Assembly (NCBI GenBank): GCA_000091205.1
Contig: AP006491.2
Direction: 5' to 3' (one strand)
DNA length: 64,000 bases
Origin: Cyanidioschyzon merolae
Taxonomy: Eukaryota
Below are positions 3,121 to 45,755 of this stretch, piece after piece. The translations under genes were made by a program, and so were the position numbers. The notes beneath the pieces are model-generated. The model was not told the origin of the DNA, ran no database searches, and worked only from the letters and a program-made list of their open reading frames with translations. Position 1 is the first letter of the stretch; every line of letters starts with the position of its first letter.

Positions 3121-4150
3121 AGCTTTGCTTTGGCGTTTTTATTTCGTCAAAACGACCGCACGTCTTTTTGGCCTTAGATGAGGGCTTTCTCGGAGGGAGC
3201 GTGGCTTTCGCAAGAAAAACGACATGTGCCCCGATGTGTTACCGAGTAATGAACGCTCAGCGTTTCGCCCGGGGGAGCGATCATCACGTTTCACGATAGA
3301 AAACACTCCTACAATGCGCTTGAACCACGGAGCGCACAGACGAACAAAAATCACCCCTACCCCGATAGAATCGGCAAAAAGCTCGAACGCAAGCGATATG
3401 GTGATATGCCACGTTGCCCAATAGAAGGACGTCGCCAGACGTCCGGTAAAAGTCTTCAATGCTTGGACAAATTGGTTGGTGCTGTTGCATGTGTCTTTTC
3501 TACAAGTGAAACTGAGGCCACCAAATAAATCTTCTAAAGCTATAATAGATGATGATTTCGTCGTTCTCTTCGAGCTCGATCGAACGTACAACGGGCGTCC
3601 TTCACCTCGAATACCCATTGACGCTCCGAGCGTGCCTTGCGAAGCAAGTTTCATCAACTGAACAAACAAACTGACGATCCGGTGGTTCCTATCGATCGTG
3701 ACGTTCCAGGGACTCTGTTATTGCGATTTGGATGGAAGATGCCATTGCTTGAACGATGACTCTTTTTGAGATTGTATCCCAGTGTTTTCAGGATCATAGG
3801 CGCGACTTGGTGAGAAACAGAGACGCCTGTGGCGACTATGATCGTCGCTGTTGCTTTCCGAAAATGGTGATCAACGGATCGTTTTCTAAGATCGACTGCA
3901 AGCGACCTCTATGAATATCGATCTCTGGCACGGAGTGCATCTACATTTTTCTTATAGTTTTCGCCAACCATCTGAGTACGTCGGTATGACTGTCCTAAAC
4001 GAGGAATGCAGTCCTCCTTGGACTGTTCAGAAATGAATGTAAATGCTACATGCAAATCATCTACGATCTACACTATGCATTGCATTGCGATTTCGATCTC
4101 CTAGACATCGCAGCGGAAGTGAAACAGAATTTAGTACAAAGACTACAAGA
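1165..4150 (-). mobile_element. Fanzor/TnpB-like transposon copy A. The nuclease pseudo-ORF runs from about 3120 down to about 1165 on the minus strand, and at least 1 kb of shared 5' element sequence lies at 3139-4150.
   Basis: Minus-strand ORFs 2068-2964, 1524-1946 and 1295-1498 sit in three different frames. They are collinear with copy B at the amino-acid level: [33 protein letters not shown] (a RuvC-I-like DxG motif) and [15 protein letters not shown]. The reconstructed start codon is at 3118-3120 (MRVQVGDPEGP, against B's MEKEVEDPGGP), with an in-frame stop soon after. The 3' end is truncated at about 1165. Region 3139-4150 aligns, reverse-complemented, with 20770-21460 of copy C. Confidence 0.6.
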
Positions 4151-6025: not shown

Positions 6026-6739
6026 TCACTTCCACCACGGATTCTCACCAGTTCGAAAGTCGGTCTCCTTCCAGGGTTTGATCTCTACGAACCCGTCATC
6101 ATCCACTTCGGTATGTGCCAGAGCGAGCGACAGCGGAGCCGGACCGCGCACCACCTTCCCTGTACGATCGTACTGCGAACCATGGCACGGGCAAATGAAC
6201 TTGTTCTGTGCTGCGTTCCAAGGCACCACGCAGCCAAGGTGCGTGCAAACAGCATTCAGTGCGTAGGTTTCGAGCTCGCCGGCGTCGTTCACAACAAGAT
6301 ACGTGGGCTCCCCGTTTAGGCCCTGCACAAGGTCACGAGAGCCGGGGGGATGCGTCTTCAGATAATCCTCCTTCTTGATAGGCGTCCCGAGGGCGTCCTT
6401 TGCAATCACACCGCCTGAGCCTTTGTTCTTCAGTGGCGGCACGAAGAAGCTGGCGTACGTGCCAAGCATGATGCTTGCTGGGAGTCCAACTGAACCCACT
6501 AGAATGAGGTTCAGCAGCGTGCGCTTCCCCATATCTGGGATGTAGTCGTCATCGGATCCCGAGGAGCCGCCACCGCTGCCGCTCCCTCCACGCGCGTCAT
6601 CAACTGTACTCGGCCGCGCAAACGTCATGCGCAGCGCCACGCGCTTCCTGCCCAGCGTTGTAGGCTGGCGTTCGACTGCACCAGGATGACACCGAGACAC
6701 CGTTCTAAACGTAATGCTATTTGTTGTAAGCACGAACAT
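6026..6739 (-). CDS. petC: Cytochrome b6-f complex Rieske iron-sulfur subunit (PetC), nuclear-encoded plastid precursor
   Basis: It carries the Rieske [2Fe-2S] boxes [11 protein letters not shown] and CPCHGSQYD, followed by [14 protein letters not shown]. There is an N-terminal presequence ([14 protein letters not shown]...) and a Gly/Ser-rich linker before the transmembrane helix. Confidence 0.9.
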
Positions 6740-6999: not shown

Positions 7000-7700
7000 T
7001 CTGGGTATCACTGTGGTAAATGAAGGCCAGCCACTTACTTTGAGTGTAGTACTAGCAACGAATGGTCCCGTAGCTGAGCCCCAGTGCTCGCGAGTGGCCA
7101 GTGAACTCATACTCTACCTTCTAGGTGGAAGGTCCAGTGAACGAGATGCGCACACGGGACCAGTGTTACGCGCACCTACTCACTGGTGGGTGGCAAGCAC
7201 AAGCCCGAGTCGCCAACCGAGGGCGACGCTTTCCGTGTACGATCACGCAGGAGAGAGGCGGCTCCCAGGATTCATCGTAACAGCCAAGTTTCTCCAACGT
7301 GTTGTGCAGCGAAAGCAAGTTTTGCATCCGCAGGCTGTCCGAGCGCAAACTGACGACGAGACCCGATTCTTTGTCGAGTGAAGCACGCCTCGAGCAGACG
7401 CCGTCTGTGGTACGGCAACGCCGTTCTGTTTCTGTGCTACGACAGCACCGGCGCTACAAGCGCTATTGAGGCGGATGTTCACGGGCAGGCACTCGGCGCC
7501 CGATAGCACGTCTGAAACGCCAGTACATCCGAGACGAAGTATGGATTATGAAACTTGGACGTAAGGCGTGGAATGACGAAAGTTTCACCGCGCGCAGGCT
7601 CCAAGCGCACAGAGTCGCGGCACGCTCGCCTGTGTGAGAAGTTTTCACATGGAACAAAATCCGCTGCCTTTGCTGTTGCCGCTGATTGTTCTCCAATGAC
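7000..7700 (+). repeat. Dispersed repeat family R2, copy 1 (about 700 bp, non-coding). It carries an internal 5S-rRNA-like segment on the minus strand at about 7350-7470.
   Basis: Region 7000-7700 aligns, reverse-complemented, with 49690-50360. One 60-bp block, gagaggcggctcccaggattcatc.taacagccaagtttctccaacgtgttgtgcagcg, is nearly identical between copies. Partial copies lie at 13068-13215 and 19109-19320. Confidence 0.6.
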
Positions 7701-7920: not shown

Positions 7921-8020
7921 CGGCGTTGCCATACCACTGAGGGCGCCGGATCGATGAACGCTTCACCTGATACAGCGTTGGAATGCACAATAATTCTGGG
8001 AGCCTGTAGGCTAAACAGAC
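7921..8020 (+). ncRNA. 5S rRNA-like segment, truncated (about 95 nt). It is probably a pseudogene or a 5S-derived repeat module.
   Basis: The 5' part acggcgttGCCATACCACtgaGGgCGCCgGATC resembles the 5S 5' consensus cTACGGCCATACCACcCTGAAcGCGCCCGATC. The 3' part tCTGGGAgCCTGTAGGCT resembles the 5S 3' end CCTGGGAA...GCTGTAGGCT. The middle is shortened and terminal helix I complementarity is not kept. Confidence 0.35.
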
Positions 8021-8539
8021 ACAACTACTGCCTGCGAAAGCGCGAACCGATATATTAGGAGTCTACTGCGATCCGGGCGACGACCAAACACAGCATCCCG
8101 CGTCTAGTCCCAGAATGAACTGCGTTGCGGACGAGCTGCTCAGGTCTCGCCACAGCGCCCGCTACTGGGGGGAGCACGAAGCACGAGTCTGGGAGACTCG
8201 TCCTGCTCGCGGGACTTTTCGCCTAGAGGGAGGATTCTTCAGAATATGGAAACCTTTTTCCCCGTTTTCAAAGTTTATCGTAGAACGGGAGAGAAATTGC
8301 TGTATCGTTGCTCGCTAGTCGTGAGTCTCTCTTCTTTGTTCTACATAGTGCTGTCGATTTGCGCACCAGGGAGATCTGTCAGTTTCGAGTCACGACGCGT
8401 ATGCTGCCGTTGAAGGGAAACGCGATCCTGATCAATAGCGTGCTGCTCTAATGTGCAAGTTGTACTTGCGTTAAAGACGTAGCAAAGTACAGTTCTTCAG
8501 TTCATTTGTGTCTCAAACCTCAAACAAGTGTATTCAACT

Positions 8540-10900
8540 GTTTTTTCGCAGTATATAACTGAAGCGTTCAAAGTCCGTTACAAAAGATAAAAAAGGAAAG
8601 TTATGGAAAAGGAAGTGGAGGATCCTGGAGGCCCAGTGTGGCTGGCCGCCAGAAAAAAAAACAAAAAAATAGTGCCGAGTCCAGAAGAAAACGAAGCGAG
8701 AAAGAAGCAAAATGGGGGCCCTACGTCGAAGGCTGCAAGAAAGACGTCTGTACAACGAGACGGTGGTGAAAGCCTGTCTTCGTAAACATACCAAGGATCC
8801 GTACAAGGCAAAGTTGCGAGGCGCTATCAGAAACCGTGTCGGGTTGTAATCCATAACGATTATAAAGGGGTCGTCAGTACGAATGCATTTGGCGAGGGAG
8901 ATGTACGAAGACGTGACGCACGTGGAAACAGTCGAGGTTCTGGTCGAGTTTTTCGACAAGACCTCTATTCGTCACCTGATGCTTGGTACGGGGGAATCGT
9001 CGACAAAGAAAGAGCTAGTGCATGCCCTCCACGAAAACTTCGCAGAATTCCGCTTCGAGGGAACTCGATACAAGGGTGACGGAAATATTTACACATGCGG
9101 GGTGATGAAGTACATCACGAACCTGAGGAACCATTTGACTATGAACCCGGAGCGTTTCATGATACGCACCGTCTTTGCGCTGTACTCGGGCCTGTCTCGC
9201 AAAGGAGTATGGGCGATTACCAATGGCATCACGAACGATCGCAAGCATGATGAGATCGAATTCGTCGACAGGAAGGCGTCACGCAGGAGAAGGTTTAAAA
9301 CTTCTGTCATCCGTGCGGTTATACAAGAGCACCGCGCAGTCTTGGGGTTGGCGAATTCAATAGAAAACATATCAGAGTTGGAAAAAGATAAGGAAAGATA
9401 CGATCGCCTCATTCTGCGCTATTTAGTGTTCTTAGACCGAGAACTCGAACGCAAGGCAGAGGTGAAGCTGAGTGAGGAAAAAATGAAGAGTGGAGGAGAC
9501 GGAAGGCTGACCTAATGGGGAAGCGCTTTAACGGCGTTCCGTTGTGCAACACCAAGTCACATTTCGTGAGTATCGACTCCAGACTCTTTTACGGCATCAC
9601 GAAGGAGATCAGTCCCGACTTCAATGTTAGCAGGGAGGACTTCACCGGCGAAAACCGGGAGACGTGCGGTAAGAAAAGTATCTTCTATTTCAAACGTCTG
9701 AAAGTGAGCAAACAAAAGATATTCACTGGGATGATCGAAACCGATGGAGTAGCCATGTGTGCACACTATCGGCGCTTGACGACAGATCGTCCAGTTCCGC
9801 CCGTGACGAAGCATGAAGAGAAGAAGGATGCGGGTCCTGCGATGCAGGAGGTGGAGGATAACGACCTGGTCGTTGACGCGACGAAGCATGAAGATAACAA
9901 CAAGGCGGCTCCTGCGACGCAGAAAGTGCAAGATATCGACTTTGTCGTTGGCGCGGACCCCGGAAACACAAATATCATCACCATCGCAGCACCGAAGTGT
10001 GCGGAAGATGGTACTGACGGTAGTTTACGTCAGAAAGACATGCGTCTATTGAGGTTCTCGAGAGCTAGATACTACCGAGAATCGGGAATCATGAATGCGG
10101 GGAAGAAAATCGAGAGCTGGAATTCAGGAATGAAGGATCACCTAGAAGCTTTGAGCGAGGTGACGAGCCGCGGAGCCGACATTGAAGCTTTTCGGGAGTC
10201 CATGGAAGGTCCGCGTTGCTCATTGGGATACGCTGTGGGAAGAGTACACCAAGCGCCGGTGGGCTCGTCTGCGTAAGAATCTGTATTGTGGTAAGCAACG
10301 TGCATTTGCCAACTTTTTCAATGCGTTGAGCGCCCTCAAGGAGAATGAAAGTCAGAGGCTCGTCGTAGCGTACGGAGCAGAGCGCTGGGCGTCCAAAAAA
10401 GGGACTACACCAGCTCCGTCGACAAGAACGTACAAGGAGTGCGCACGGCGTTTCGCTACGATACCTGTAGACGAGTTCCGAACATCGTATACACACCACG
10501 AACTGGGGTGTACGCATCACAGAGTGGAGATGGAAACGTGCCAGAGGAGTCCTGAGGATATAAAAAAATACGGAGCGCTGATGGAGGGGCAAATGGAAAG
10601 GAGGGCGAAATTTAGCGGATTGCTTGCATTAGTAAGTACACTCAATGATGGCAAGAAACGGATGGAATTCGTGAACAGAGACTTTCACGCAGTGATCAAT
10701 GTAAGATGTGCGGTAATGGAGAAAAGGCCTCGATACTGGACACGAGAGAACTTTGTTGGACAACCTCTCAAAGTGGAACTATATAAGAAAAAGCTGGAAG
10801 CAGTAATGGGTGGCCGGTCCAAAAAAACTGGGAGGCGTCAGCACATCAGTTAGAGACGATTTGTCTAGGGCGCGTTCGCCGCCACTGCTGAACACCGTCG
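8540..10900 (+). mobile_element. Fanzor/TnpB-like transposon copy B (divergent subfamily) with a decayed nuclease ORF
   Basis: ORFs 8603-8785, 8883-9515, 9515-10276 and 10182-10853 lie in alternating frames. Together they reconstruct a protein of about 750 aa with [17 protein letters not shown] (RuvC-I), [42 protein letters not shown] (a degenerate Zn-ribbon position) and KRMEFVNRDFHAVINVRCAV (RuvC-III, RDxNAAxNI-like). Amino-acid identity to copy A is about 55-60%. Sequence upstream of the start codon (beyond about 60 bp) is unrelated to copy A. Confidence 0.6.
8603..10853 (+). pseudogene. Fanzor/TnpB-like RuvC nuclease pseudogene (copy B). It has at least three frameshifts and one in-frame stop.
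   Basis: The frames are 8603 to 8712 (+1 to 0), a stop near 8835, a shift at 9515 and a shift near 10190. Part of the acidic N-terminal segment is tandemly duplicated ([24 protein letters not shown] / [24 protein letters not shown]). Confidence 0.55.
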
Positions 10901-11029
10901 GCGTCGTTCGACTTTTGCAAAGTGTTCGGTATCGGTGTCGGTGACGGTGTCGGTGCGGTGTGCGTTTCAGTTGCTGCCCTGCGCTTTCGAGCATCAGCTT
11001 ATATAACTCTGTGCACACGTGAACTGCCA

Positions 11030-11971
11030 ATGGCTGAGACTTGCTCATTTCGCGGATACTTGAAGGGCCATGGAAACTGGGTAACGGCACTCGCCACGCC
11101 TCCGGACTCCGTAGACACACTGGTTTCGGTTTCTCGCGATAAGACCCTGATCTGGTGGGAACTCACCGGCGAGGAGGGCGACTACGGGCGCCCGCGGAAG
11201 GCCCTACACGGCCATAACCACTTCATAAGCGATGTGTGTCTCAGCTCAGATGGCCAGTTTGCGTTGACGTCTTCTTGGGACAAGGAGTTGCGGCTCTGGG
11301 ATCTGCAGCTTGGTGAGTCGGTCCGACGTTTCGTCGGGCACCGCAAAGATGTGCTCTCTGTGGCGTTCAGCCCGGACAACCGCCAAATAGTTTCGGCTTC
11401 ACGTGATCGCACGATAAAGATGTGGAACATTTTGGGCCAGTGCAAGTATGAGATCGTGGAAGACTCGCATACCGCATGGATTAGTTGCGTGCGGCTATCG
11501 CCGTCTCCGGCGGTTCCGTGTTTTGTTTCGTGCGGCTGGGATAAGCTGGTGAAGGTCTGGGATCTGGCCACCTGCCAGTTAAAGTTTAATCTGGTCGGTC
11601 ATACTGGCTACCTCAACTGCGTCACCATCTCACCAGACGGAAGTTTGTGCGCCAGCGGCGGACGTGACGGCTCGGTGATGCTCTGGGACCTACAGCAGGG
11701 GCAGCACCTGCACACACTCGAGGGAACCGAGGAGATCTATGCGCTCTGCTTCTCTCCGAGCCGCTACTGGCTATGTGCTGCAACTAGCAGCTCCGTGAAG
11801 ATCTGGGATCTCGAAACCAAGTCCGTGGTGGAGAACCTGCGTGATGAATCGTTCTTCGGCCCAAAGACGGCCCAAGCGCCACCGTGTATCTGCATGGCGT
11901 GGTCTTCGGATGGTGCAACGCTGTTCTGTGGACACACCGATAATCTCATTCGCGTTTGGGCTGTCATCTAG
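11030..11971 (+). CDS. RACK1: RACK1 (receptor for activated C kinase 1 / guanine nucleotide-binding protein beta-2-like 1), a seven-WD40 ribosomal scaffold protein
   Basis: The [24 protein letters not shown] start continues with [85 protein letters not shown]. The gene is intronless, about 314 aa. A TATA-like tatataactctg sits about 35 bp upstream. Confidence 0.92.
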
Positions 11972-15722: not shown

Positions 15723-18650
15723 TTATTCCAACCAGAGCATCGGCTCTAGCGTGACATTCGGCGTCGCCTGTTCCAGCAGCGCCTGTGAGGCAGATCCCGG
15801 GATACCGCTTCGATCGCAGGCGAGCAGCGTCGCCAGGACTTCGACATGATCCGAGGCGCTCGGCTGCGATGGTGTTGTCGAGCGCTGCGTCAGCAGTTGC
15901 AGACGCAATCCCTCGAGGCGGGCAGCCGCGGTTTCCCGCCAGCCTGCGCGCAAGCCCGCCGCTAGAAACTCGGACGTGCGCAAAAACTGCAACAGACGCC
16001 CGACGCAAATCACCGGGATGGAAGGCATCGCTTGTTCCGATGCCGATTGCGCTGACGCGTTTCCGTTGCCAGCGGCTGGAGTGTGGACAGGGAGCTCCAG
16101 CGGTGCCTGGGAAAACGCGGCCGCCAGATGGCGACCGAGCGCGTGCCCGGCGCGATACAGCGCTCGCTGGGCGATGCGGTTCCCGGTTGGCGCCCGCATG
16201 TTCGTGCCAGCCTGCTCGGCAACTAGGTAGCCGAACTCTACCATCCGGCAGCGAGGCAGTGGTCCGCGATACAGGCAATGCAGCAGCGTTTCCAGATCTG
16301 CGCACGCAAAATGTGTCAAGGCGAGCGCGAGCAGTTCATCGGCAGCTGCCTTGCAGGCCGCACGATCCCACGGCTCACTCGAGCACTCAAAGCGCATGCC
16401 GTCGAGGGCACACAGCGCATACCGCAGCGCATCCAGACCGAGTACAAAGGGGGAACCCTCGTCTCCAAGTAGTGGACCATAGCCTCCGATTCGAATATCT
16501 AGGCCACCGGCGATGTCAGCGGAGACACGAAGATCCTTGCGCATGCGCGGATCGGCGACCAAGCGACACAGACAGCCGCGCTCGCTGGAAAGCAGCAGTA
16601 GCGCGATACCTTGGCGCGATGCGACTGGGTCAGCGGGCGCACTGTGGCCGCGGATGGTGCCTCCGCTGCCTGCGAGCATGCTCAGCGGTGACGGCCGCAG
16701 CACGCTGATAAGCGGGAGGTTCACTTCATCCCAGCAGACGACCGTTACAGGGCAATGAAAGCGCCACTCGAGACGCTCGGCTACTGCACGTTGATCCGCG
16801 CTTGATCGTAGACTATCGATGACGAGGCCAATCCCAGCGAGGCGATAGTCCGCAGCGATCGCTCGTCGTCGTCGTGATTTGCGTCCACAACGCTGAGCGA
16901 TTTGGCAGAGCACACTGCCCAGGTTGAACGCGTCGAAGGTGTCGTGCCAGTCGCCATCCAAGCTCGCATCATTAGCGGGCCCGAGATGCGAGCCCTCTCT
17001 ATCGCTTGCCTGCAGACAGCAACGAATCCAGTCCGAAAGACGGCGCTGATAGGCTTGCATCGTACCATCCCGGTGGTGCAGCGGTGCCTGCCCGGAGCCA
17101 GTGCGACTGCAACAGCACGCCCGCGGCTCCATGCCGCCGTCGCCGTCGCCGCTGCTGTTTGTTGTCACCGTGCAGCTGCGACTCGGGGAAACGCGACGGC
17201 ACCGTGTGCGATAAATGTTTGCTAACGCATACGCTTCTAGCAAAAGTATTTCCACTGCCTGGAGCAGGCGTTCCATCGGCGTTGCGTCCTGTTGTCGCTT
17301 TTGTTCTGAACTGAACGACAAAGCTTTTTCAGTGAACTGGGCCAAGAAGCGACATGCTGGCATATGCAGCCTCGGCGTGCTCGCGTGCGCCGGCGCTTCG
17401 GATATCTCAGCCACACCTGGGCGCGTAGGGTATTCCTCATTCGCACTAGACTCGGCGACTGCACCCAGCTGGGGTTCGCCAGCCTCGTCGCCGCCTAAAA
17501 GGTCATCGTGTGCGTCCGCACCAAACGAAGATGACGTAACTGCAGTTAATGGATTCGCGAGTAGCGCCGACGATGCCGTCATGTACGGTACTACGAGCAG
17601 GTCGACGTCGTCGACGTCGAAATTCGCGTCCACCGGCTCCAGGAAATCCGTTCCCTCGCCAGCAACCGATTCAAACCAATGCGGTTCGGTGTCCTGCACA
17701 CGACTTGCAATGGCATCGTTCCCGCGTTTCCGGCGCTGGCCAGTCCCGGTTGTCGCCAGAAATCCATCCGATTGCGTTGGCGCTTGTGTTCGGCGTTGGT
17801 TCGCTGATTCACTAGATGGGCGCTCCTCGAGCGGCCCTGTACTTGGCGAGGACGGAATCGTGCACGTCGACGAAGACGAGGCCTTGGTCGGCCTCCCGCA
17901 GCAATCGAGACCACGAGCGACCCTAGCAGGCTCCGATGCCGGTGGCGGTGTTGCGTAACTGCAGAAGCTGCGCACGCCATCCTGAGGTAGCGTGCTCGAC
18001 AACCCTGTCGCAACGTTGCCAAGCTCTTCGTATGCCTCGTACTGGTCCAGCTCCCGCGGTAGCGATACTTGCTCATAGAACCAGGGATGCGTCACGCTAT
18101 CCGGGTTTTGAAGCTGCACATAAAACGAGTCACCCCGGGATTGCATCGCGCACGACGGGTATCTCGAGCTGCTGTTACGACCTACAGTCCGACCGGAACG
18201 CTGACTCGCGCAGGCGCCAGCGACTGCAGCGCCGATCCCTGGTCCAGTGCTGCAGGAACAACGCGCGTGCTGCTCCCGCAGTGCGAGCGTTCCCTTCGTG
18301 CTTTTCCCCCCGGAACCAGGGTCCACACCAGTTTCGCGGCTATGTGCACAGTTACAACGCAGCGCGTCTGTAACGTCTACGAGCGCCACATGACACTCGC
18401 GGCCGCGTATCGCCAAGCCCAGCACCACGACGCACGTGTCAGTTTTCCCTCCTAATTCGTCATCATCCCTGCCCACTTGATTTCGCAGCCCCGGTGCTTT
18501 CTTCGTCATAATAAGCACAAGCAACCTAGAAATAACGAATAACGGCTCTCTTACAGGCACCGTCACGAGTTGTATGGCACCACTTGTCGAGGCGGTACCT
18601 GCGCAGCGCGCCCGCCATACCACTCCCACTCGACGACCGTACCAGCGCAC
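15723..18650 (-). CDS. Large protein (975 aa) with a C-terminal N-acetylglucosamine-kinase-like (BadF/BadG/BcrA/BcrD-type) ATPase domain and a low-complexity N-terminal extension of about 500 aa
   Basis: The C-terminal GGYGPLLGDEGSPFVLGLDAL (compare NAGK GWGxxLGDEGSAYWIG), NRIAQRALYRAGHALGRHLAAAF and PVICVGRLLQF match the NAGK family layout. The phosphate-2 position reads LLSSERGC instead of GTGSNC, so catalytic competence is uncertain. Confidence 0.45.
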   Translation of the reverse strand: MRWYGRRVGVVWRARCAGTASTSGAIQLVTVPVREPLFVISRLLVLIMTKKAPGLRNQVGRDDDELGGKTDTCVVVLGLAIRGRECHVALVDVTDALRCNCAHSRETGVDPGSGGKSTKGTLALREQHARCSCSTGPGIGAAVAGACASQRSGRTVGRNSSSRYPSCAMQSRGDSFYVQLQNPDSVTHPWFYEQVSLPRELDQYEAYEELGNVATGLSSTLPQDGVRSFCSYATPPPASEPARVARGLDCCGRPTKASSSSTCTIPSSPSTGPLEERPSSESANQRRTQAPTQSDGFLATTGTGQRRKRGNDAIASRVQDTEPHWFESVAGEGTDFLEPVDANFDVDDVDLLVVPYMTASSALLANPLTAVTSSSFGADAHDDLLGGDEAGEPQLGAVAESSANEEYPTRPGVAEISEAPAHASTPRLHMPACRFLAQFTEKALSFSSEQKRQQDATPMERLLQAVEILLLEAYALANIYRTRCRRVSPSRSCTVTTNSSGDGDGGMEPRACCCSRTGSGQAPLHHRDGTMQAYQRRLSDWIRCCLQASDREGSHLGPANDASLDGDWHDTFDAFNLGSVLCQIAQRCGRKSRRRRAIAADYRLAGIGLVIDSLRSSADQRAVAERLEWRFHCPVTVVCWDEVNLPLISVLRPSPLSMLAGSGGTIRGHSAPADPVASRQGIALLLLSSERGCLCRLVADPRMRKDLRVSADIAGGLDIRIGGYGPLLGDEGSPFVLGLDALRYALCALDGMRFECSSEPWDRAACKAAADELLALALTHFACADLETLLHCLYRGPLPRCRMVEFGYLVAEQAGTNMRAPTGNRIAQRALYRAGHALGRHLAAAFSQAPLELPVHTPAAGNGNASAQSASEQAMPSIPVICVGRLLQFLRTSEFLAAGLRAGWRETAAARLEGLRLQLLTQRSTTPSQPSASDHVEVLATLLACDRSGIPGSASQALLEQATPNVTLEPMLWLE

Positions 18651-38229: not shown

Positions 38230-41200
38230 ATGTTTAAGCACCAGAACGTTACGCCGGATGCAGGGGCGGTGTCGCCCCACCGGACTCGGGTCACGTTTCT
38301 GGTTCGTTGCCGACAAGTTGTGGACGCGGCCGGCGAGCAGTTGGTGCTGGTCGGAGATCATCCAGCGCTGGGCAGTTGGGAGCCAGCGCGTGGCGTGCCG
38401 ATGACCCGTCAGGAGCGCTCATCTACCCCGGAGCCGGTATCGACTAGTGCGATAGGTCAGCAGGCGCACGCAACGTTGAGCAGCTCGCAGCAGAGCTCCC
38501 GCGCAGCTTCCTGGTCGTGCGAAGTGGTGCTCGATAACGGCTCGCAACTAAACTACAAGTACTGCATCGTTGCTCGCGACCCAGATTCAGGTGTCATCGA
38601 CCAGAGTCACGAGCCGCGGTTTGAGAGCTTTGAAGGGAACCGCAGGCTGAAAGTGATGGGCATCGCGATGCGCGTTGATGATCACAACTTTGGTGAGCGC
38701 TACGACGCTACCGACGAGTCCCGCATTCGGGTGGACTACGGCAGAGTGTTTGGCGGTTTCGAAGCTCCTCGCCAGTTAGAGGTTCCAAGTCTGGAAGGTG
38801 GCAGTGTAGGCGAGCAGCTGCCGTACAGCGGTGCAAGCTCCCTACTGGGCACGCTGCCACCGTTGACGAATCCGCCCACGCTCATTATCGTGATTTACCG
38901 TCTCCCGGTTATTGCAAAGAGATCGGAGCGGGGCTGGTCGTTTTCCTGGGACGATGATGCACTGTATCTGACTTCGCTGGGACTTCGGCGAGGTCTCGAT
39001 GGAAAAATTCGAATCCTCTGGGTCGGCGTGCTGAACTGCGACGACGAAGTTCCGATCCACGAGCAGTCACACGTTAGTAACACGCTGTATCAGCGCTTCG
39101 GCTGTATACCGGTGTTCCTGCCCACGGAAACCCGAATGAAATTCTACCAGGGCTTTTGCAAGGGCGTCCTGTGGCCGCTCTTTCATATGATCACTGAGAT
39201 TATGGACGAGGAAAAAATGGAAACAAAGAAATTCGATCGAAGCTTGTGGCATGTGTACTGCACCGTGAACCGCAAATTCGCGGATACCGTGGTCGCCGTG
39301 TACCACGAGCACGACCTCATCTGGATCCACGACTACCACCTGATGGTGTTGCCATCGCAGCTGCGACGGAAATTATCCGGAGCCAAAATCGGTTTCTTCC
39401 TACATACGCCCTGGCCGTCAAGCGAAATCTATCGAATGTTGCCGGTGCGCGATGAGCTTCTCCGTGGACTCCTATCATCATCACTCATTGGATTTCATCT
39501 CTTTGACTATGCGCGTCACTTCCTCTCCGCCTGTGTCCGCTTGCTCAACCTGGAGCACGAGTCATCGCGCGGTGCGCTTGCAGTGGAATACTCGGGACGA
39601 CATGTTATGATTCGAGTATCGCACATCGGGGTGGATCCCGACCGCTTTCGTGAACGCCTCGAACATCCCAACGTGCGACAGGCTGCGGAGACCTTGGCCG
39701 GAGATATCCACGATCGCATCGTTCTCTGCGGTATTGATGATCTGGACATTGTTAAGGGTATTGCGCTCAAACTGCAGGCTTTTGAAACGCTCCTCCAAAC
39801 GTACCCAGGCTACCATCGCCGCCTCGTCTTGATGCAAGCAGCGATCCCGAAGGCTGCGCGCGTCAAGCCCTACGTTCGCGACGAGATTCGATCGCTTGTG
39901 GAGCGCATCAACGGCCGCTACGGCAGCGCAGAGTACCGCCCAGTAGTGTACATCGAGCGAGACATCACCTTCGACGAGCGTGTGGCCATGTACAGTCTCG
40001 CGGATGCTATCTTCCTCACGCCGATCCGCGATGGTCTGAATCTGGTTCCCTATGAGTACGTCGTATCGGCGTCCAAGAGCAAGGGTCAGCTGATCCTCAG
40101 CGAGTTCACCGGCTGCTCACGAGCACTTTCTGGAGCAGTTCGCATCAATCCGTGGAATCGAGAAGAGGTTGCCGCTGCGATCGACTCAGTCCTGCAAAAC
40201 AACGACGAAGTGAAACAGCGAAAACACGCCGCTGATTACAGCTATGTGTGTGAACACACAACAGCCACCTGGGCGTACTCCTTTCTGTCGGATTTGGAGC
40301 GGGCCTCGGAGCCCGTTCGGCGACTGACCAGGCTGGGTCTGGGGTATGGTGTAGGTGCCCGCCTGGTCGAGTTCGAAGGCTTCCAGCATGTCTCGCCAGA
40401 GACGCTCTCGAAAGCGATGCGCGAGTCGTCGCATCGCCTCATCCTGCTGGATTACGACGGAACGCTGACCCGCGCCGACCAGCGCCATGCGCGCATGGCG
40501 CACGCCTGGGCGAAACCCTCGGAGACCGTCATGCAATACCTGGAGGCGATTGCGGATAATCCCCAGAATTTCGTAGTCATCATGAGTGGAAGAACCAAAG
40601 AGGTCCTAGAGCAAGCCTTCAAAGACCTTGACAAAGTCGGTCTGGCAGCTGAGCACGGGTTCTACTATCGCTGGAACGGCTCTTGTCCGTGGCAAGAGAG
40701 CAAACCGAATGCGGATTTGTCGTGGATTGAGGTTGCACACGAAATCATGTTATCCTACATGGAGCGTACCGATGGAAGCTATATTGAGCGCAAGACCGCG
40801 GGTCTCGTCTGGCACTACAAGGATGCAGATCCGGAGTTTGGCAGTTGGCAGGCAAGCGAGATGCACGACCATCTGGAGTCGGTGCTCAGCTCACTGGGTG
40901 TCCAGGTAATCTCTGGTAATCGTTGGGTGCAGGTACGACTCCGCGACGTGAACAAGGGCATCATGGTGGAGACCATTCTTCGACACTACACGCATCCGAC
41001 TGACGAGGATCATGCGACGAACGAGGGGTCTGCTATGACAGCAACAACGAGTACGACGACACCTGGTAGTGCTACAGCTGCTGCTACAGCTGCTGGTCAA
41101 GAACCTGGCCAATTGCCGGACTTTGTGCTCTGCTGTGGTGACGATCGCACTGACGAAGACATGTTTACGCGCATTGATCGCGCGTATGAACGATGTCCAC

Positions 41201-41517
41201 CGGCAGTGCGCTCGCGCGTCTTCACCTGTGTCATCGGTGTCAAGCCCAGCAACGCCCACTTCTACATTCGGGATTACGAAGAGATGATGGAGATTTTGGC
41301 GGCACTGGCTACTGCCTCCATGGCGGTGCGCCCGCCACGTTCAGCCACCCTGGAGGATTTTCGTCTTTCGATGGCAGCGGGTTCACCACTGCGTTCGGAT
41401 TTGAGAACCAGCCTGGATAACGATCGCATCGCGCATAGTCTCGACACCAGCGACGATGCGAATACTACTGGAGCAGGTCTTCAGCGACGCTGGGGTCCAG
41501 GACGGCTCGGAGCCTAG
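38230..41517 (+). CDS. Trehalose-6-phosphate synthase / trehalose-6-phosphate phosphatase fusion with an N-terminal CBM20 starch-binding module (CBM20-GT20-TPP)
   Basis: The N-terminal part VTFLVRCRQVVDAAGEQLVLVGDHPALGSWEPARGVPM is CBM20-like. The GT20 core reads LWVGVLNCD...YQGFCKGVLWPLFHM...WIHDYHLMVLPSQLR...GFFLHTPWPSSEIYRMLPVRDELLRGLL...GFHLFDYARHFL. The HAD phosphatase part reads LILLDYDGTLT...VVIMSGR...CCGDDRTDEDMF. The ORF is 1095 aa. Confidence 0.85.
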   Translation: MFKHQNVTPDAGAVSPHRTRVTFLVRCRQVVDAAGEQLVLVGDHPALGSWEPARGVPMTRQERSSTPEPVSTSAIGQQAHATLSSSQQSSRAASWSCEVVLDNGSQLNYKYCIVARDPDSGVIDQSHEPRFESFEGNRRLKVMGIAMRVDDHNFGERYDATDESRIRVDYGRVFGGFEAPRQLEVPSLEGGSVGEQLPYSGASSLLGTLPPLTNPPTLIIVIYRLPVIAKRSERGWSFSWDDDALYLTSLGLRRGLDGKIRILWVGVLNCDDEVPIHEQSHVSNTLYQRFGCIPVFLPTETRMKFYQGFCKGVLWPLFHMITEIMDEEKMETKKFDRSLWHVYCTVNRKFADTVVAVYHEHDLIWIHDYHLMVLPSQLRRKLSGAKIGFFLHTPWPSSEIYRMLPVRDELLRGLLSSSLIGFHLFDYARHFLSACVRLLNLEHESSRGALAVEYSGRHVMIRVSHIGVDPDRFRERLEHPNVRQAAETLAGDIHDRIVLCGIDDLDIVKGIALKLQAFETLLQTYPGYHRRLVLMQAAIPKAARVKPYVRDEIRSLVERINGRYGSAEYRPVVYIERDITFDERVAMYSLADAIFLTPIRDGLNLVPYEYVVSASKSKGQLILSEFTGCSRALSGAVRINPWNREEVAAAIDSVLQNNDEVKQRKHAADYSYVCEHTTATWAYSFLSDLERASEPVRRLTRLGLGYGVGARLVEFEGFQHVSPETLSKAMRESSHRLILLDYDGTLTRADQRHARMAHAWAKPSETVMQYLEAIADNPQNFVVIMSGRTKEVLEQAFKDLDKVGLAAEHGFYYRWNGSCPWQESKPNADLSWIEVAHEIMLSYMERTDGSYIERKTAGLVWHYKDADPEFGSWQASEMHDHLESVLSSLGVQVISGNRWVQVRLRDVNKGIMVETILRHYTHPTDEDHATNEGSAMTATTSTTTPGSATAAATAAGQEPGQLPDFVLCCGDDRTDEDMFTRIDRAYERCPPAVRSRVFTCVIGVKPSNAHFYIRDYEEMMEILAALATASMAVRPPRSATLEDFRLSMAAGSPLRSDLRTSLDNDRIAHSLDTSDDANTTGAGLQRRWGPGRLGA

Positions 41518-42007
41518 TGCACATCTGGAAGCATCGCTACAGCCGTGGCGTCTTATGCGCCACATCAGCGTCGCTGGTGCTAGTGGTACATGGTAAAAGG
41601 CTGTTGCGCCGTTTGGCGCGAACTCACCTGGGCCGATCTGGTACCCTGCTTGGCCCGCGAACGCTCCAAAGCGGCAGTATCCAGAACGCGACACCCGGCC
41701 TCTACAAGCTGGTGGATTCGTGCCGGACTGGTTGTGCACGGGTATCCAGAGGCGCAACACGAGCGTGAGGTGCAGCGGCATCACCCGCGTGGTACGATTT
41801 GAGCAAGTTCTGTCCTTTAAATGTGCCATACGAGAAATAGAGAGACCTTTTTTGCTGTCTTCTAGCATCCAAATGCAGGGGTTTCGTCATTAATGTCCGG
41901 CGTGCTTTCACAAAAGTTCCGTCATGCACCGGCCTTGCGCGCAGTCGTTGCATGTTCAGGGAAAACTGGGGTCCGCTGTCTAGTGACGCATTCCAGCCGC
42001 GGATATC

Positions 42008-45000
42008 TTAGGGTGCCTGTTCGCCAGGGGGCATATCCTGCTGGGGCTCTATAGCCATATCGGTATCTGCAGCGGTATCACCGGGATCAACATCAGCAGC
42101 GGCTGTATCAGGAGCAGCATCAGCGGTATCACCGGTTTCAGTAGCAGGTGTATCAGGAGCAGCATCAGCCGTCTCAACATCAGCAGCAGTGGTATCAGTA
42201 GCAGCTGTATCAGGAGCAGCATCAGTATCGGCGGTATCAGGAGCAGTATCGGGAGACGTTTCCTCTGGACCTGAACCGCTCGCTGACACTTCCAGTGGAT
42301 CCGGAGCAGATTCCATGGCTGGTGCTTCCGCGTCCACACCAGCAGCATTTGAATCACCAGCAGGCTCTGGGGCAGCTTCTGAAACATCTTGTGGTGCACT
42401 GGCCTCCGTCCGAGCATCTGCTGCGGGCGTTCCTGGTGCTGATGCCTCACTAGTCTCCGGCTCGAGCGCAGGAGGCGCGTCCGTAGGCGTCTGCTCCGGT
42501 GCCTGCGCTGACTCCTGCGTGCGCTCATTCTCCACTGATCCAAAAGAGGCACAGTGCTGAACCATTAGGACAGCCGAATACGGTTCCATGTGGAAAGGCA
42601 TCGATACGCAGGTCATCGAGGTTTCGACGTCCTCGGGGAAACCGCTCGCTCCAGCCAGCGCGAAACAGTCCATCGGTGCAGGTGCCGCTGTATTGAAGAG
42701 CACCGCCCAGCCTGACTTGCCGTCGGCAAAACGGGGGGCAGTGATATCGCACGCTTCGTGTGAGGCGTTAAAAGCGATGTAAAGGTGGCGACCTTGCAGT
42801 GCTGGTGCCCGTGCACCACGTATTACAAACGCCAAAAAGTTGTTCGGATTTTCCCAGTTCAGGGGACAAGCGGAGGTGTCCGCCAATGGCTCCTCTGAGC
42901 TCGTGTCATCATCACGCTCGCCTACGGAGCCAAGGGCATTGCAGAGTACCGCTGCCGAGGCGTCCGTGCCACACCAAACAAAGTCGCCGCGAGACTCGGA
43001 GAGAAAGCGGCGCCAAATGGGGGCAGTCAGCTTGCGAAAGTGCACCAGCGTACTCACAAAGCGGAAAAGGGAACGAGCTTCACCGGACTCGGATGCCAAC
43101 GCATTCCAGTGGAGATAATTGAGCTCATTATCCTGACACCACACGTTGGAGTTGCCACGCTGGGTGTGGCCGATTTCATCCCCGCTGCGGATCATAGGGA
43201 CTCGGGCACTGCACAGCAGTATGAGGAAAAAGTTGCGCTCCTGACGACGTCGCAGACGCAGCACGTTCTCATCGTCGGTCTCGCCCTCGACACCACAGTT
43301 CCAGCTGAGATTGTGTTTCTCGCCGTCGCGGTTGTCTTCGCCGTTTGCCCAGTTTTGGGCATCGTTATAGGACACAAGATCGCGGAGGCTCATCCCGTCA
43401 TGGCAGGTGATAAAGTTGATCCCGTACGCGTGGCCGTTCTCCTGGAGACCCCGCCGAATCTCCGCCGGAACATTCCCTCCGTAGATGTCCTCGGAGCCGC
43501 AAATCCGGGTGGCCATCTCTTGGATCATGCCGGTGTCGCCCTTGATGAACTTTCGTACGCAATCGCGGTACTTGCCATTCCAGTCGGACCAGCTGGGTCC
43601 AAATTGTGCGAAATGCCCCACGACGTAAGCGCTGAGGTCCCATGGTTCTGCAATGAAGAGCACGTCTGAGAGGGCGCTATCGTTCTTCAACGCTTGAATG
43701 ACTGCTGGGAATTCCATGAGATCGAAAGGAGGCACCGTGGAGCGGAGAAGGCATGCTGCCAAGTCAAAGCGAAACCCATCGACTTGCATATCGTTTGCCC
43801 AGAAACGCACGCAATCATGAATGACCTCAATGCCTGCCAAAGAGTTGCAAGCGAACGTGTGGCCGCACCCAGAAAAGTTCACATCGTTACCATGATCGTG
43901 CAGATAGTACTCTCGATTCGCGAGTGCCCTAAAGTGGTAGGTCTTCCACGTCTCGGCGGTGTGATTGAAAACAATGTCGAGAATGACGGCGATGCCAGCA
44001 CGGTGCAGTTCGCGTACCATGGTGCGAAACTCATCCAGAACATGGCGGTAGCGGTACGCTCTTGCCCACTTTCGGCGCGCAGCTTCCGAGGTGGCCGCCC
44101 CAATCACCGAGAAACGGTTCATAGGTGCGAAGAATGCAACCGTCGAGTAGCCCCAGTACTGGCAGAGATCTTCCCCAGTGGAAGGGTTCTTCTTCTGCCA
44201 CTCCAGCTCATTGAACTCGAAGATAGGCAAAAACTCGACGCAGTTGATGCCAAGCGCTTTCAAGTACGGAATTTTTTCGATCACCGCGGTAAAGGTTCCT
44301 CGGGGGCTGCGGATATCCTTCGCCATTGCCGTAAACGAGCGCACATGGACCTCGTAGATAACCATGTCGCTGGCTGGTATGTTGGGCTTTCGCACGCCTT
44401 GCCAATCGAATCCGCTCAGGTAGTCGAGTGGAGGTATCACCGCAAAAGGAGTGTACTTATTTTTGCGCTTCTCTCTGGCATGAAAATCATAATACAGCGG
44501 TGAGTCAATGATGCGTGCGAAAGGATCGAGCACTATCTGCGCACCCTTGCCGCGACCTACGCGCCATGCGTACCGGTACCCAGCCAGAAGCGGTTGCACC
44601 GCCACGTGCCAGACTTTACCCATTCGGTTTTTCCGAGGATCAAGGCGCAGCTCGACGCAAGAGTCCAGTGCAAGCACTGCAAACCCACTGCTGTCGTCGT
44701 TAGGCGGCTCGAGGTTCTTGTCGTCGCCGGCTTCAGCGTCTTCGGGAATAGCTTCGAGCGCACCGCTGCCTGCAGCGAGCGCACTTCCCTCGGGATGATA
44801 TATGATCAGAGACATGTGCCGCTGCTCAGTGCTGTAGATCGCAAAGTTGACAGTGTTTGCATCGAGCGGGTGACACCCGTACGGACTCGGTTTGCCTCGG
44901 AGGACGCGGCTAAGCCAGGGCGCTCCAGTGAGCGACTTGCGCGACTCAAGAAGAATCGACGCTGACGACGTCACCCGGCGAATGCGTCGCCCAGTTGATT

Positions 45001-45043
45001 GATCCAGCACTTCATATCCAACCTGTGAAGTCTGGTTCCCCAT
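42008..45043 (-). CDS. Isoamylase-type starch/glycogen debranching enzyme (GH13, with an N-terminal CBM48-like region) carrying a C-terminal acidic Ala/Pro/Thr/Asp-rich repeat tail of about 200 aa
   Basis: GH13 catalytic blocks are present: VDGFRFDLAACL (nucleophile), IAEPWDLSAY (acid/base), ITCHDGMSLRDLVSYND and VIYEVHVRSFT. The tail (…TAPDTADTDAAPDTAATDTTAADVETADAAPDTPATETGDTADAAPDTAAADVDPGDTAADTD…) is encoded by tandem nucleotide repeats of about 33 bp at 42010-42300. The N-terminus MGNQTSQ fits an N-myristoylation consensus. Confidence 0.85.
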   Translation of the reverse strand: MGNQTSQVGYEVLDQSTGRRIRRVTSSASILLESRKSLTGAPWLSRVLRGKPSPYGCHPLDANTVNFAIYSTEQRHMSLIIYHPEGSALAAGSGALEAIPEDAEAGDDKNLEPPNDDSSGFAVLALDSCVELRLDPRKNRMGKVWHVAVQPLLAGYRYAWRVGRGKGAQIVLDPFARIIDSPLYYDFHAREKRKNKYTPFAVIPPLDYLSGFDWQGVRKPNIPASDMVIYEVHVRSFTAMAKDIRSPRGTFTAVIEKIPYLKALGINCVEFLPIFEFNELEWQKKNPSTGEDLCQYWGYSTVAFFAPMNRFSVIGAATSEAARRKWARAYRYRHVLDEFRTMVRELHRAGIAVILDIVFNHTAETWKTYHFRALANREYYLHDHGNDVNFSGCGHTFACNSLAGIEVIHDCVRFWANDMQVDGFRFDLAACLLRSTVPPFDLMEFPAVIQALKNDSALSDVLFIAEPWDLSAYVVGHFAQFGPSWSDWNGKYRDCVRKFIKGDTGMIQEMATRICGSEDIYGGNVPAEIRRGLQENGHAYGINFITCHDGMSLRDLVSYNDAQNWANGEDNRDGEKHNLSWNCGVEGETDDENVLRLRRRQERNFFLILLCSARVPMIRSGDEIGHTQRGNSNVWCQDNELNYLHWNALASESGEARSLFRFVSTLVHFRKLTAPIWRRFLSESRGDFVWCGTDASAAVLCNALGSVGERDDDTSSEEPLADTSACPLNWENPNNFLAFVIRGARAPALQGRHLYIAFNASHEACDITAPRFADGKSGWAVLFNTAAPAPMDCFALAGASGFPEDVETSMTCVSMPFHMEPYSAVLMVQHCASFGSVENERTQESAQAPEQTPTDAPPALEPETSEASAPGTPAADARTEASAPQDVSEAAPEPAGDSNAAGVDAEAPAMESAPDPLEVSASGSGPEETSPDTAPDTADTDAAPDTAATDTTAADVETADAAPDTPATETGDTADAAPDTAAADVDPGDTAADTDMAIEPQQDMPPGEQAP

Positions 45044-45290: not shown

Positions 45291-45619
45291 CTGATGCTGC
45301 TGCTGCTGCTGCTGCTGATGCTGCTGCTGATGCTGATGATGCTTTCGGAGGTGGCGCTCATTGCCGCCTCCGCTTTGCGATTTAGCCGATCTCCCGTGCA
45401 AGGTGGCGCTGCTGCTGCTGATGATGCTGCTGCTGCTGATGATGATGCTGAAGATGCTTTCGGAGGTGGCGCTCATTGCAGCCTCCGCTTTGCGATTTAG
45501 CCGATCTCCCGTGCAAGGTGGCGCTGCTGCAGCAGCTGCTGCTGATGATGATGCTTTCGGAGGTGGCGCTCATTGCCGCCTCCGCTTTGCGATTTAGCCG
45601 ATCTCCCGTGCAAGGTGGC

Positions 45620-45650
<31 letters not shown>

Positions 45651-45719
45651 ATGCTTTCGGAGGTGGCGCTCATTGCCGCCTCCGCTTTGCGATTTAGCCG
45701 ATCTCCCGTGCAAGGTGGC

Positions 45720-45750
<31 letters not shown>

Positions 45751-45755
45751 ATGCT
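45291..45755. repeat. Minisatellite. It has four tandem units of about 97-115 bp, each ending in a (GCT)n(GAT)n microsatellite core, preceded by a (GCT/GATGCT)n tract.
   Basis: Units begin with gctttcggaggtggcgctcattgccgcctccgctttgcgatttagccgatctcccgtgcaaggtggcgctgctgctg... at 45341, 45456, 45553 and 45653. It is intergenic, between the isoamylase and PheRS genes. Confidence 0.85.

Follow-up and report, generated by a model that had tools for sequence, protein, structure and literature searches.

The isoamylase CMI294C and a CBM20-bearing TPS-like protein of Cyanidioschyzon merolae: a putative N-myristoylation signal, a conserved acidic tail and a probable isofloridoside enzyme

The 64,000-nucleotide stretch of the Cyanidioschyzon merolae 10D genome considered here (the window, from contig AP006491.2, to which all coordinates refer unless another locus is named) holds two long open reading frames that are letter for letter identical to GenBank proteins. 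The first, on the plus strand at 38230..41517, encodes a 1095-residue fusion of a CBM20 starch-binding module, a GT20 glycosyltransferase domain and a phosphatase domain of the trehalose-phosphate phosphatase (TPP) family (BAM80147.1 / XP_005536433.1, named “trehalose-6-phosphate synthase”). The second, on the minus strand at 42008..45043, encodes the 1011-residue isoamylase CMI294C (BAM80148.1 / XP_005536434.1), identified by its exact match and from the literature. Both proteins belong to one 810-kb C. merolae 10D record and, because the matches are exact, the bacterial-style open reading frame calls can be taken as real gene models in this nearly intron-free red alga of hot springs. An earlier note on this DNA, made from its letters alone, had placed the two genes tail to tail at these coordinates with these identities and domain architectures, and Pfam profiles and database matches agree with it. 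The 490-bp spacer between the convergent stop codons (41518..42007) was examined for repeats, RNA families and terminator-like sites, none of which was detected, and a scan of it for bacterial-type promoters and terminators returned nothing, as did Rfam and tRNA scans of the whole window. Judging the isoamylase, the CBM20-bearing protein and their pairing jointly, we consider it very likely that both are ordinary, already annotated nuclear genes acting on cytosolic floridean storage carbohydrate, and the cytosolic setting invoked by the earlier note is indeed established for red algae. The gene pair is thus a known one, and the new leads that it offers are modest.

The folded core of CMI294C (42539..44905, minus strand; residues 47-835) comprises a CBM48 N-domain, a GH13 barrel and an ISOA1-3 C-domain, each above its Pfam cut-off (CBM_48, 25.8 against 22.4 bits; Alpha-amylase, 51.8 against 22; ISOA1-3_C, 31.8 against 27.3). 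The best NCBIfam match is TIGR02100 GlgX (E=7e-140), with 467.2 bits, below the bacterial equivalog cut-off of 640.9. A complete catalytic triad is present in D427 (FRFDLA), E466 (AEPWD) and D549 (TCHDG), and these residues are invariant in 13 of 13 alleles. Much of the biology of the enzyme has already been described in two papers. Maeno et al. (2022; PMC9424615) deleted CMI294C and reported that the semi-amylopectin content fell, that the granules were smaller and that long chains became more abundant, a phenotype from which it follows that the enzyme trims misplaced branches and so lets the glucan pack into granules; in the same account the paralogue CMS197C functions in degradation. Okada et al. 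(2025; PMC12313807) described the glutathione S-transferase (GST)-tagged protein from E. coli as an active, thermostable debranching enzyme with an optimum of 55 °C, a preference for amylopectin over glycogen and inhibition by Zn and Cu, named D427, E466 and D549 as its catalytic residues, presented an AlphaFold model and predicted residues 1-38 and 833-1011 to be disordered. The word “myristoyl” occurs in neither paper, and the sections consulted discuss neither the acidity of the tail, nor the conservation of tail or N-terminal extension among orthologues, nor the neighbouring gene.

It is these two ends of the protein that set it apart. Most of its 120 best homologues are 630-790 residues long, which bears out the earlier description of both the tail and the MG start as atypical. 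The N-terminal extension (44906..45043, minus strand; residues 1-46) is specific to the Cyanidiaceae, the Galdieria isoamylase, the isoamylases of other red algae and the CMS197C-type paralogues all being without it. It opens with the motif MGNQTSQ (45023-45043), the N-terminal peptide from Gly2 being GNQTSQVGYEVLDQSTGR, and this motif matches the PROSITE pattern PS00008, G-{EDRKHPFYW}-x(2)-[STAGCN]-{P}, so that the N-myristoylation consensus noticed from the bare sequence is really there. Adding the orthologues of two further Cyanidiaceae lineages (P0031 and P0032, 75% and 76% identical) and that of Cyanidium caldarium (P0033, 58%) brings to four of four the proteins that begin with MG, carry serine at position 6 and fit the pattern, three of them as MGNQTSQ and the Cyanidium protein as MGVVQSA; the pattern is found neither in the Galdieria isoamylase nor in CMS197C-type paralogues. 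Of residues 2-10, only G2 and S6 are identical in C. merolae and Cyanidium; if two of nine positions are conserved, the probability that they are precisely this pair is 1/36. Positions 2 and 6 are the most critical ones for N-myristoyltransferase. Conservation then resumes in a block of the form G18-R-R-I-x-R-x-x-S-S-x-S...S-R-K, the invariant residues of the orthologue alignment being M1, G2, S6, G18, R19, R20, I21, R23, S26, S27, S29, S34, R35 and K36.

Any reading of the motif stands or falls with the start codon, as the earlier note had recognised, and here the evidence is consistent. An in-frame stop lies 33 codons upstream of the ATG at 45043, with no earlier start between the two, and the next in-frame methionine, M77, already lies inside the fold. 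In the 75%-identity lineage (locus L001) there is a stop three codons upstream of the ATG, and the 138 nucleotides before the C. merolae ATG are only 21% identical to that locus and cannot be aligned with it; within the first 46 codons, by comparison, 26 codons differ synonymously only and 7 non-synonymously. Eleven environmental alleles show zero variable positions in the extension. The start codon is secure, and the extension is clearly under purifying selection as a translated sequence. An alternative upstream start was considered on account of a 92-codon open reading frame upstream of the Cyanidium gene, joined to it in the EukProt model P0034, and was rejected, as this frame is not conserved. 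The model itself (ctg_1779.g512) is a chimera, with the 92-residue upstream part followed by CMI294C-type sequence as far as the AEPWD region and then by sequence identical to the CMS197C-type paralogue P0055, and therefore provides no evidence for an upstream start.

The extension does not appear to be borrowed from elsewhere. A profile built from it and run against 1.84 billion representative sequences found only isoamylase orthologues, and it is therefore not a shared targeting module. A plastid transit peptide was likewise discarded, both because acidic residues are among those conserved in the extension, whose degree of conservation is far above that usual for transit peptides, and because red-algal starch is cytosolic. 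The Arg/Ser block, GRRIRRVTSSASI (residues 19-30; window 44954-44989), is an observation in its own right: S26 stands in an I-x-R-x-x-S-x-x-x-I context of AMPK/SnRK1 type and T25 in an R-x-R-x-x-T context of AGC-kinase type, the hydrophobic residue at +4 of the S26 context being shifted by one position in Cyanidium. In the phosphoproteome and proteome supplements of two C. merolae TOR papers, as far as these could be searched, neither CMI294C nor CMI293C has an entry.

We suggest that the initiator methionine would be removed, that Gly2 would be N-myristoylated and that the lipid, together with the basic patch of the Arg/Ser block, would tether the protein weakly to the surface of a membrane or of another protein, possibly under the control of phosphorylation. 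On the strength of the conserved sequence, we lean, by a little, towards CMI294C being N-myristoylated at Gly2 in vivo; that the protein is thereby anchored to a membrane or to granules is also supported by this conservation, and is a further step that we infer. Several considerations weigh against both steps. Myristate alone binds membranes weakly, the first 56 residues offer no cysteine for palmitoylation, and the basic block begins 17 residues away from Gly2. The presence of an N-myristoyltransferase in C. merolae is assumed from the general distribution of this enzyme in eukaryotes. (A red-alga-specific ARF paralogue has been predicted to be myristoylated; PMC8358228.) Our literature search found no mass-spectrometry or labelling data on the lipidation of CMI294C, or on its association with membranes or granules. 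Finally, the GST-tagged enzyme from E. coli, which is unlipidated, was active (PMC12313807), and the motif is hence unnecessary for catalysis.

The foremost alternative is that the MG start is a coincidence, Gly2 being merely exposed or N-acetylated and the extension belonging to a soluble cytosolic isoamylase, in which it would serve only for regulation by phosphorylation or for contacts with other proteins. This may well be true, although we do not favour it. The kinase-type consensus around T25 and S26 would explain the conservation of the Arg/Ser block with no need for a lipid, PS00008 is a permissive pattern, Gly2 has no second membrane signal beside it, and the unlipidated enzyme was fully active. 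What such a segment leaves unaccounted for is the pattern within residues 2-10, where it is precisely G2 and S6 that persist between C. merolae and Cyanidium. Asn3 and Ser6, moreover, are favoured in known N-myristoylation substrates. The paralogue and the Galdieria enzyme, which have no motif, also have no extension. N-myristoylation of Gly2 is accordingly the reading that we carry forward, with the qualifications given above.

At the other end of the protein lies the acidic disordered tail (42011..42538, minus strand; residues 836-1011), delimited by its composition and by the published disorder prediction (PMC12313807). Alanine makes up 24% of it, proline 14%, aspartate 14%, threonine 12% and glutamate 11%, and with 2 basic residues its net charge is -41, in keeping with the acidic Ala/Pro/Thr/Asp-rich character ascribed to it in the earlier note. 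The same note derived the tail from tandem repeats of about 33 bp, and this the data contradict. Tandem Repeats Finder (TRF) reports periods of 9, 15, 21 and 27 bp with 59-84% matches over the tail and no period near 33 bp, and in the degenerate, DAAPDT-type low-complexity core (42059-42259, minus strand; residues 929-995) the periods that it finds, at 42061-42250, are all weak and overlap one another (15, 21 and 27 bp; 59-71% matches). Autocorrelation at 33 bp does not exceed a codon-shuffled null, with z=1.5 for the whole tail and 0.9 for the repeat core. The sole recurring peptide is DAAPDT itself, at irregular spacings of 19 and 15 residues. A 33-bp tandem repeat is thus ruled out, and the tail is better described as degenerate low complexity.

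If the count begins at the last conserved strand, C. merolae has a tail of 183 residues (net charge -41), its two closer orthologues have tails of 156 (-35) and 142 (-28) and Cyanidium one of 90 (-20), and the Galdieria-type enzyme has one of 87 residues with a net charge of -13; in Chondrus, Rhodosorus and the CMS197C-type paralogues only 3-30 residues follow that strand. A strongly acidic tail is therefore kept in five of the five Cyanidiophyceae lineages examined, although its sequences cannot be aligned between lineages and its repeats are lineage-specific. In the acidic tail of the L001 protein there is a recent 72-bp (24-residue) tandem duplication, 95% identical between its copies (L001 10638-10774), which indicates that the tails grow by local duplication. 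Among the 11 full-length environmental alleles, variable columns number 8 of 176 in the tail and 8 of 789 in the core, a 4.6-fold difference (p=0.004), and the alleles are all of the same length, with no indel, frameshift or stop in the tail. The idea that the tail might be an assembly or repeat-expansion artefact, a possibility that the earlier note had itself raised, is excluded by these alleles of identical length, and the tail is real.

On this comparison, the tail appears to be kept across the Cyanidiophyceae as an acidic and nearly base-free feature while its sequence and length turn over, and such persistence of acidity through sequence turnover, with neither indels nor stops among alleles, is what would be expected where a disordered region is retained for its composition and not for its sequence. 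Most likely the tail would work by charge and disorder, that is by solubility, spacing or repulsion, and not through any motif. The main competing explanation is that it is a nearly neutral and functionless product of replication slippage in GC-rich DNA, which we think possible while rather doubting it. The polymorphism of the tail, its unconserved sequence and its slippage-type repeats would fit a tolerated, near-neutral expansion too, and must be counted against a function based on charge; so must the facts that every lineage has repeats of its own and that lengths range from 87 to 183 residues. A neutral expansion gives little reason, on the other hand, for the tail to be strongly negative in all five lineages, with basic residues at only 2 of 183 positions in C. 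merolae, for the 11 natural alleles to be free of frameshifts, stops and indels, or for the paralogue and other red algae to lack the tail. As a separate observation, four isoamylase homologues of 860-964 residues (P0080, P0099, P0100 and P0134), one of them from the MMETSP and EukProt transcriptome collections, carry Pfam CBM_20 besides the GH13 core, and so possess an additional module for starch binding, in contrast to the acidic tail of the Cyanidiaceae enzymes.

The neighbouring gene encodes three domains. Its CBM20 module (38281..38649, plus strand; about residues 18-140) was delimited with Pfam and with a split alignment to the starch-binding domain of 7czj. The Pfam CBM_20 match is significant (PF00686; E=4.5e-11, residues 20-68, 42.9 bits against a cut-off of 23.3) and spans only profile positions 3-49 of 97, the first half, because a Ser/Thr/Gln-rich insertion of 33 residues (38410-38508, plus strand; residues 61-93) splits the module between its halves. 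The insertion is found at the same place, with divergent sequence, in Cyanidiaceae orthologues and is absent from those of Galdieria, Porphyridium and Gracilariopsis. W50 (LGSW), W95 and K110 (NYKY) are kept, and the third site-1 position is taken by F131, a tryptophan in Galdieria and Porphyridium; the assignment of a Trp-Lys-Trp set to site 1 and a Trp to site 2 presumably follows glucoamylase numbering. The module thus appears to keep most of its binding-site residues.

The GT20 domain (38881..40299, plus strand; residues 218-690) is class-II-like and matches Pfam Glyco_transf_20 with E=1e-153. We aligned it to an E. coli OtsA sequence in which 15 of 15 landmark residues fall at their published numbers. 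The UDP-sugar contacts D130, H154, K267, D361, N364, L365 and E369 are kept, the ERLD motif of OtsA reads DDLD so that Arg262 is replaced by Asp, and Met363 is replaced by Leu. Asp at the Arg262 position is shared by the whole red-algal CBM20 clade and by a plant class II trehalose-phosphate synthase (TPS), and Leu at the Met363 position is common to the whole red-algal CBM20 clade. The protein falls below the NCBIfam equivalog cut-offs both for OtsA and for the bifunctional synthase/phosphatase (TIGR02400, 403.8 against 564.85 bits; NF011071, 597.2 against 634; NF007513, 228.6 against 759). The HAD-type sugar-phosphate phosphatase domain that follows (40444..41271, plus strand; residues 739-1014; Pfam Trehalose_PPase, E=5e-59) has an intact DxDxT nucleophile motif (LLDYDGT, residues 739-745) and passes the TIGR00685 phosphatase model with 119.3 bits against 68.05.

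The architecture CBM20 + GT20 + TPP is found across red algae, in Cyanidium, Galdieria, Porphyridium, Rhodella, Hildenbrandia, Gracilariopsis and others. Outside the Cyanidiaceae, the C. merolae protein is matched best by a cluster, drawn at 90% identity, in which G. sulphuraria EME31717.1 is found (58% identity over 94% of the length), the same cluster listing also holding EME31719.1, which is Gasu_10970. Sun et al. (2019; PMC6642608) described one TPS clade, shared by red algae, diatoms and brown algae, whose members carry CBM20 at the N-terminus, explicitly listed BAM80147.1 in it, and identified EME31717.1 as a CBM20-bearing G. sulphuraria TPS and Gasu_10960 as the Galdieria TPS with a CBM domain. 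Both the three-domain architecture and the closest relative outside the Cyanidiaceae accord with that placement, and the protein can be assigned, from its sequence, to the red-algal class-II-like TPS clade that contains Gasu_10960. According to the passage in which PMC6642608 cites Pade et al. (2015), Gasu_10960 and PhTPS4 of Pyropia haitanensis yield isofloridoside only, and it is for the Galdieria and Pyropia enzymes that synthesis of isofloridoside phosphate out of UDP-galactose and glycerol-3-phosphate has been demonstrated. We consider it fairly probable that BAM80147.1 docks on alpha-glucan and there converts the same two substrates into isofloridoside phosphate, and this into isofloridoside.

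It is probably not a trehalose-6-phosphate synthase. The earlier note proposed that trehalose-6-phosphate metabolism would be located on granules; “trehalose” is here the name of an annotation, not of an assayed activity. On that proposal, 38230-41517 would encode a true trehalose-6-phosphate synthase/phosphatase tethered to starch, through which either signalling by trehalose-6-phosphate or the making of trehalose would be coupled to the granule. In its favour, trehalose-phosphate synthases supply the GenBank name and the best matches in Pfam, NCBIfam and the PDB, most UDP-sugar contacts are kept (D130, H154, K267, D361 and E369 among them), the phosphatase model scores above its cut-off, and trehalose has been detected in some red algae. 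Against our own assignment it must also be said that a 2026 proteomics paper treats C. merolae TPS proteins as trehalose enzymes, and that the alignment is ambiguous at OtsA R9, G22 and R300 and unreliable at the acceptor-site residues. We nevertheless regard a trehalose-6-phosphate synthase as unlikely, since the characterised members of the CBM20 clade produce isofloridoside only and the Gasu_10960 cluster shares 58% identity with this protein, both OtsA equivalog cut-offs are missed, and Asp replaces OtsA Arg262 as it does in plant class II TPS; other C. merolae TPS genes, CMO053C and CMP219C, are discussed as trehalose enzymes. For this combination of an isofloridoside-making clade, scores below the OtsA cut-offs and Asp at Arg262, the protein was not filed as a trehalose-6-phosphate synthase, and the name should be corrected: the “trehalose” gene more likely encodes an isofloridoside-phosphate synthase/phosphatase.

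The isoamylase and the CBM20-bearing TPS are convergent neighbours in three Cyanidiaceae lineages: C. merolae, L001 and Cyanidium (L003, CDCA01G0146/0147). There they form part of a collinear block (RPA_C, SF1, TPS, ISA, PheRS, Pyr_redox), and within the family the pairing therefore says little. Galdieria is more informative. In G. yellowstonensis (JANCYU010000020.1; L004), the isoamylase at 1287-3950 and the CBM20-TPS at 8001-11896 share a strand and are separated by about 4 kb, in which two unrelated genes lie, and their outer neighbours (ARMC5, Rer1, Pcc1) are unlike those of C. merolae; when this 20-kb locus was compared by tblastx with the 64-kb window, only the isoamylase and the CBM20-TPS matched. 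Judging from the order of accessions, G. sulphuraria (EME31713/EME31717) and G. partita (g743/g746) would have the two genes arranged likewise. Because the genes lie so close in Galdieria despite different flanks, their linkage predates the split between Galdieria and the Cyanidiaceae. In Porphyridium and Chondrus, the two genes are unlinked. In Porphyridium purpureum (VRMN01000001.1; L007 1-1195, 10001-12940) there is no isoamylase near the CBM20-TPS-TPP gene, and a Glyco_transf_8 (glycogenin-like) gene lies about 9 kb upstream of it.

Galdieria has a single isoamylase gene according to Maeno et al. (PMC9424615), and by linkage CMI294C can be regarded as its positional orthologue. A neighbour-joining tree of isoamylases does not settle which of the Cyanidiaceae paralogues is the orthologue of the Galdieria gene (support 22-34%). 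From gene order, we see the linkage as ancient and possibly under selection. That the two genes should go further and constitute a co-regulated module for partitioning carbon between starch and heterosides, its proximity kept by selection, we think improbable: the convergent arrangement in three Cyanidiaceae lineages, the spacing by two genes in three Galdieria species (about 4 kb in L004) with nothing else shared in 20 kb, an estimated probability of chance proximity of roughly <1% given a single Galdieria isoamylase, and the glucan-binding modules on both proteins speak for it, but in the Cyanidiaceae a wider block is collinear and the pair is not specifically retained, orientation and spacing differ in Galdieria, and Porphyridium and Chondrus have the genes unlinked.

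Two further features of the window may be recorded here. In the divergent spacer between the isoamylase and PheRS genes, 250-700 bp upstream of the isoamylase ATG, there is a minisatellite (45295-45755) with units of 97-115 bp in about 3.3 copies, 90-93% matches and GCT (CAG/CTG) runs in each unit; the orthologous spacer in L001 has unrelated repeats, of 112 bp in 2 copies (6431-6656) and of 58 bp in 1.9 copies (7568-7678). At 15723-18650, on the minus strand, a 975-residue open reading frame with no Pfam family at E<=1e-4 overlaps an opposite-strand open reading frame of 307 residues.

It is tempting to combine these elements. A myristoyl group, added to CMI294C-type isoamylases of the Cyanidiaceae during their translation, and the Arg/Ser block could form a phospho-switchable electrostatic anchor that would hold the isoamylase at a membrane or at a granule-initiation surface with its acidic tail pointing outward, and the linkage of the two genes could reflect coordinated partitioning of carbon between starch and heterosides. 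Such anchoring could control glucan crystallization in space only where starch is formed in the cytosol, as it is in red algae, and as a whole we put this scheme forward as a speculation that is quite unlikely to hold in all its parts. If CMI294C were indeed lipid-anchored, it would be, as far as our literature search showed, the first starch-debranching enzyme of this kind, with consequences for our view of where granules of cytosolic starch are placed and how they start, both in red algae and in the secondary-plastid lineages derived from them. More soberly, the useful outputs are a functional relabelling of the TPS-like gene, a localization lead for the isoamylase and a conserved gene pair. 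New in this analysis are the conserved Gly2/Ser6 with the 46-residue extension, the acidic tail kept across the Cyanidiophyceae and the linkage in Galdieria. The knock-out of CMI294C, its enzymology and its disordered tail were known, as was the CBM20-TPS fusion, BAM80147.1 by name; domain fusion and odd tail have been published (PMC6642608 and PMC12313807, respectively) and are therefore not new, so that the novelty claimed for them in the earlier note was overstated. What has lasted of that note are the domains, the layout, the acidic tail and the MG start, and what has not are the 33-bp repeat and the trehalose-6-phosphate reading.

Comparison with known systems helps to place both proteins. 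The closest counterparts of BAM80147.1 are Gasu_10960 and PhTPS4, with which it shares an identical three-domain architecture and, in the case of the Gasu_10960 cluster, the identity over 94% of its length given above; it differs from them in a CBM20 that is split by the 33-residue insertion and in the Phe at the third binding-site Trp. Its closest non-algal homologues, at about 42% identity, are the plant class II TPS (TPS5-TPS11), which likewise have DD(L/M)D in place of OtsA Arg262 and a TPP-like domain with intact HAD motifs. The plant proteins have no CBM20, and their catalysis is doubtful, a regulatory role being the one usually considered. As regards the N-terminus of CMI294C, the nearest functional analogy would be the beta subunit of AMPK (SnRK1 beta in plants), a myristoylated protein with an MGN... 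start, an Arg/Ser phospho-type block and a glucan-binding CBM48. The likeness is one of function only: a BLASTP comparison of the N-terminal 181 residues of CMI294C with a human AMPK beta1 sequence gave E=24, and homology of the two N-termini was discarded for lack of detectable similarity. The enzyme itself has its plainest relatives in plant and green-algal ISA1 and in bacterial GlgX (GH13_11, e.g., Chlamydomonas ISA1), which share the CBM48, the GH13 barrel, the ISOA C-domain and the Asp-Glu-Asp triad as well as the role of trimming branches while insoluble glucan is being made. In contrast to these, CMI294C is cytosolic and not plastidial, carries the 46-residue MGxxxS extension and the 176-residue acidic tail, prefers longer chains according to the literature and forms a long branch in the isoamylase tree.

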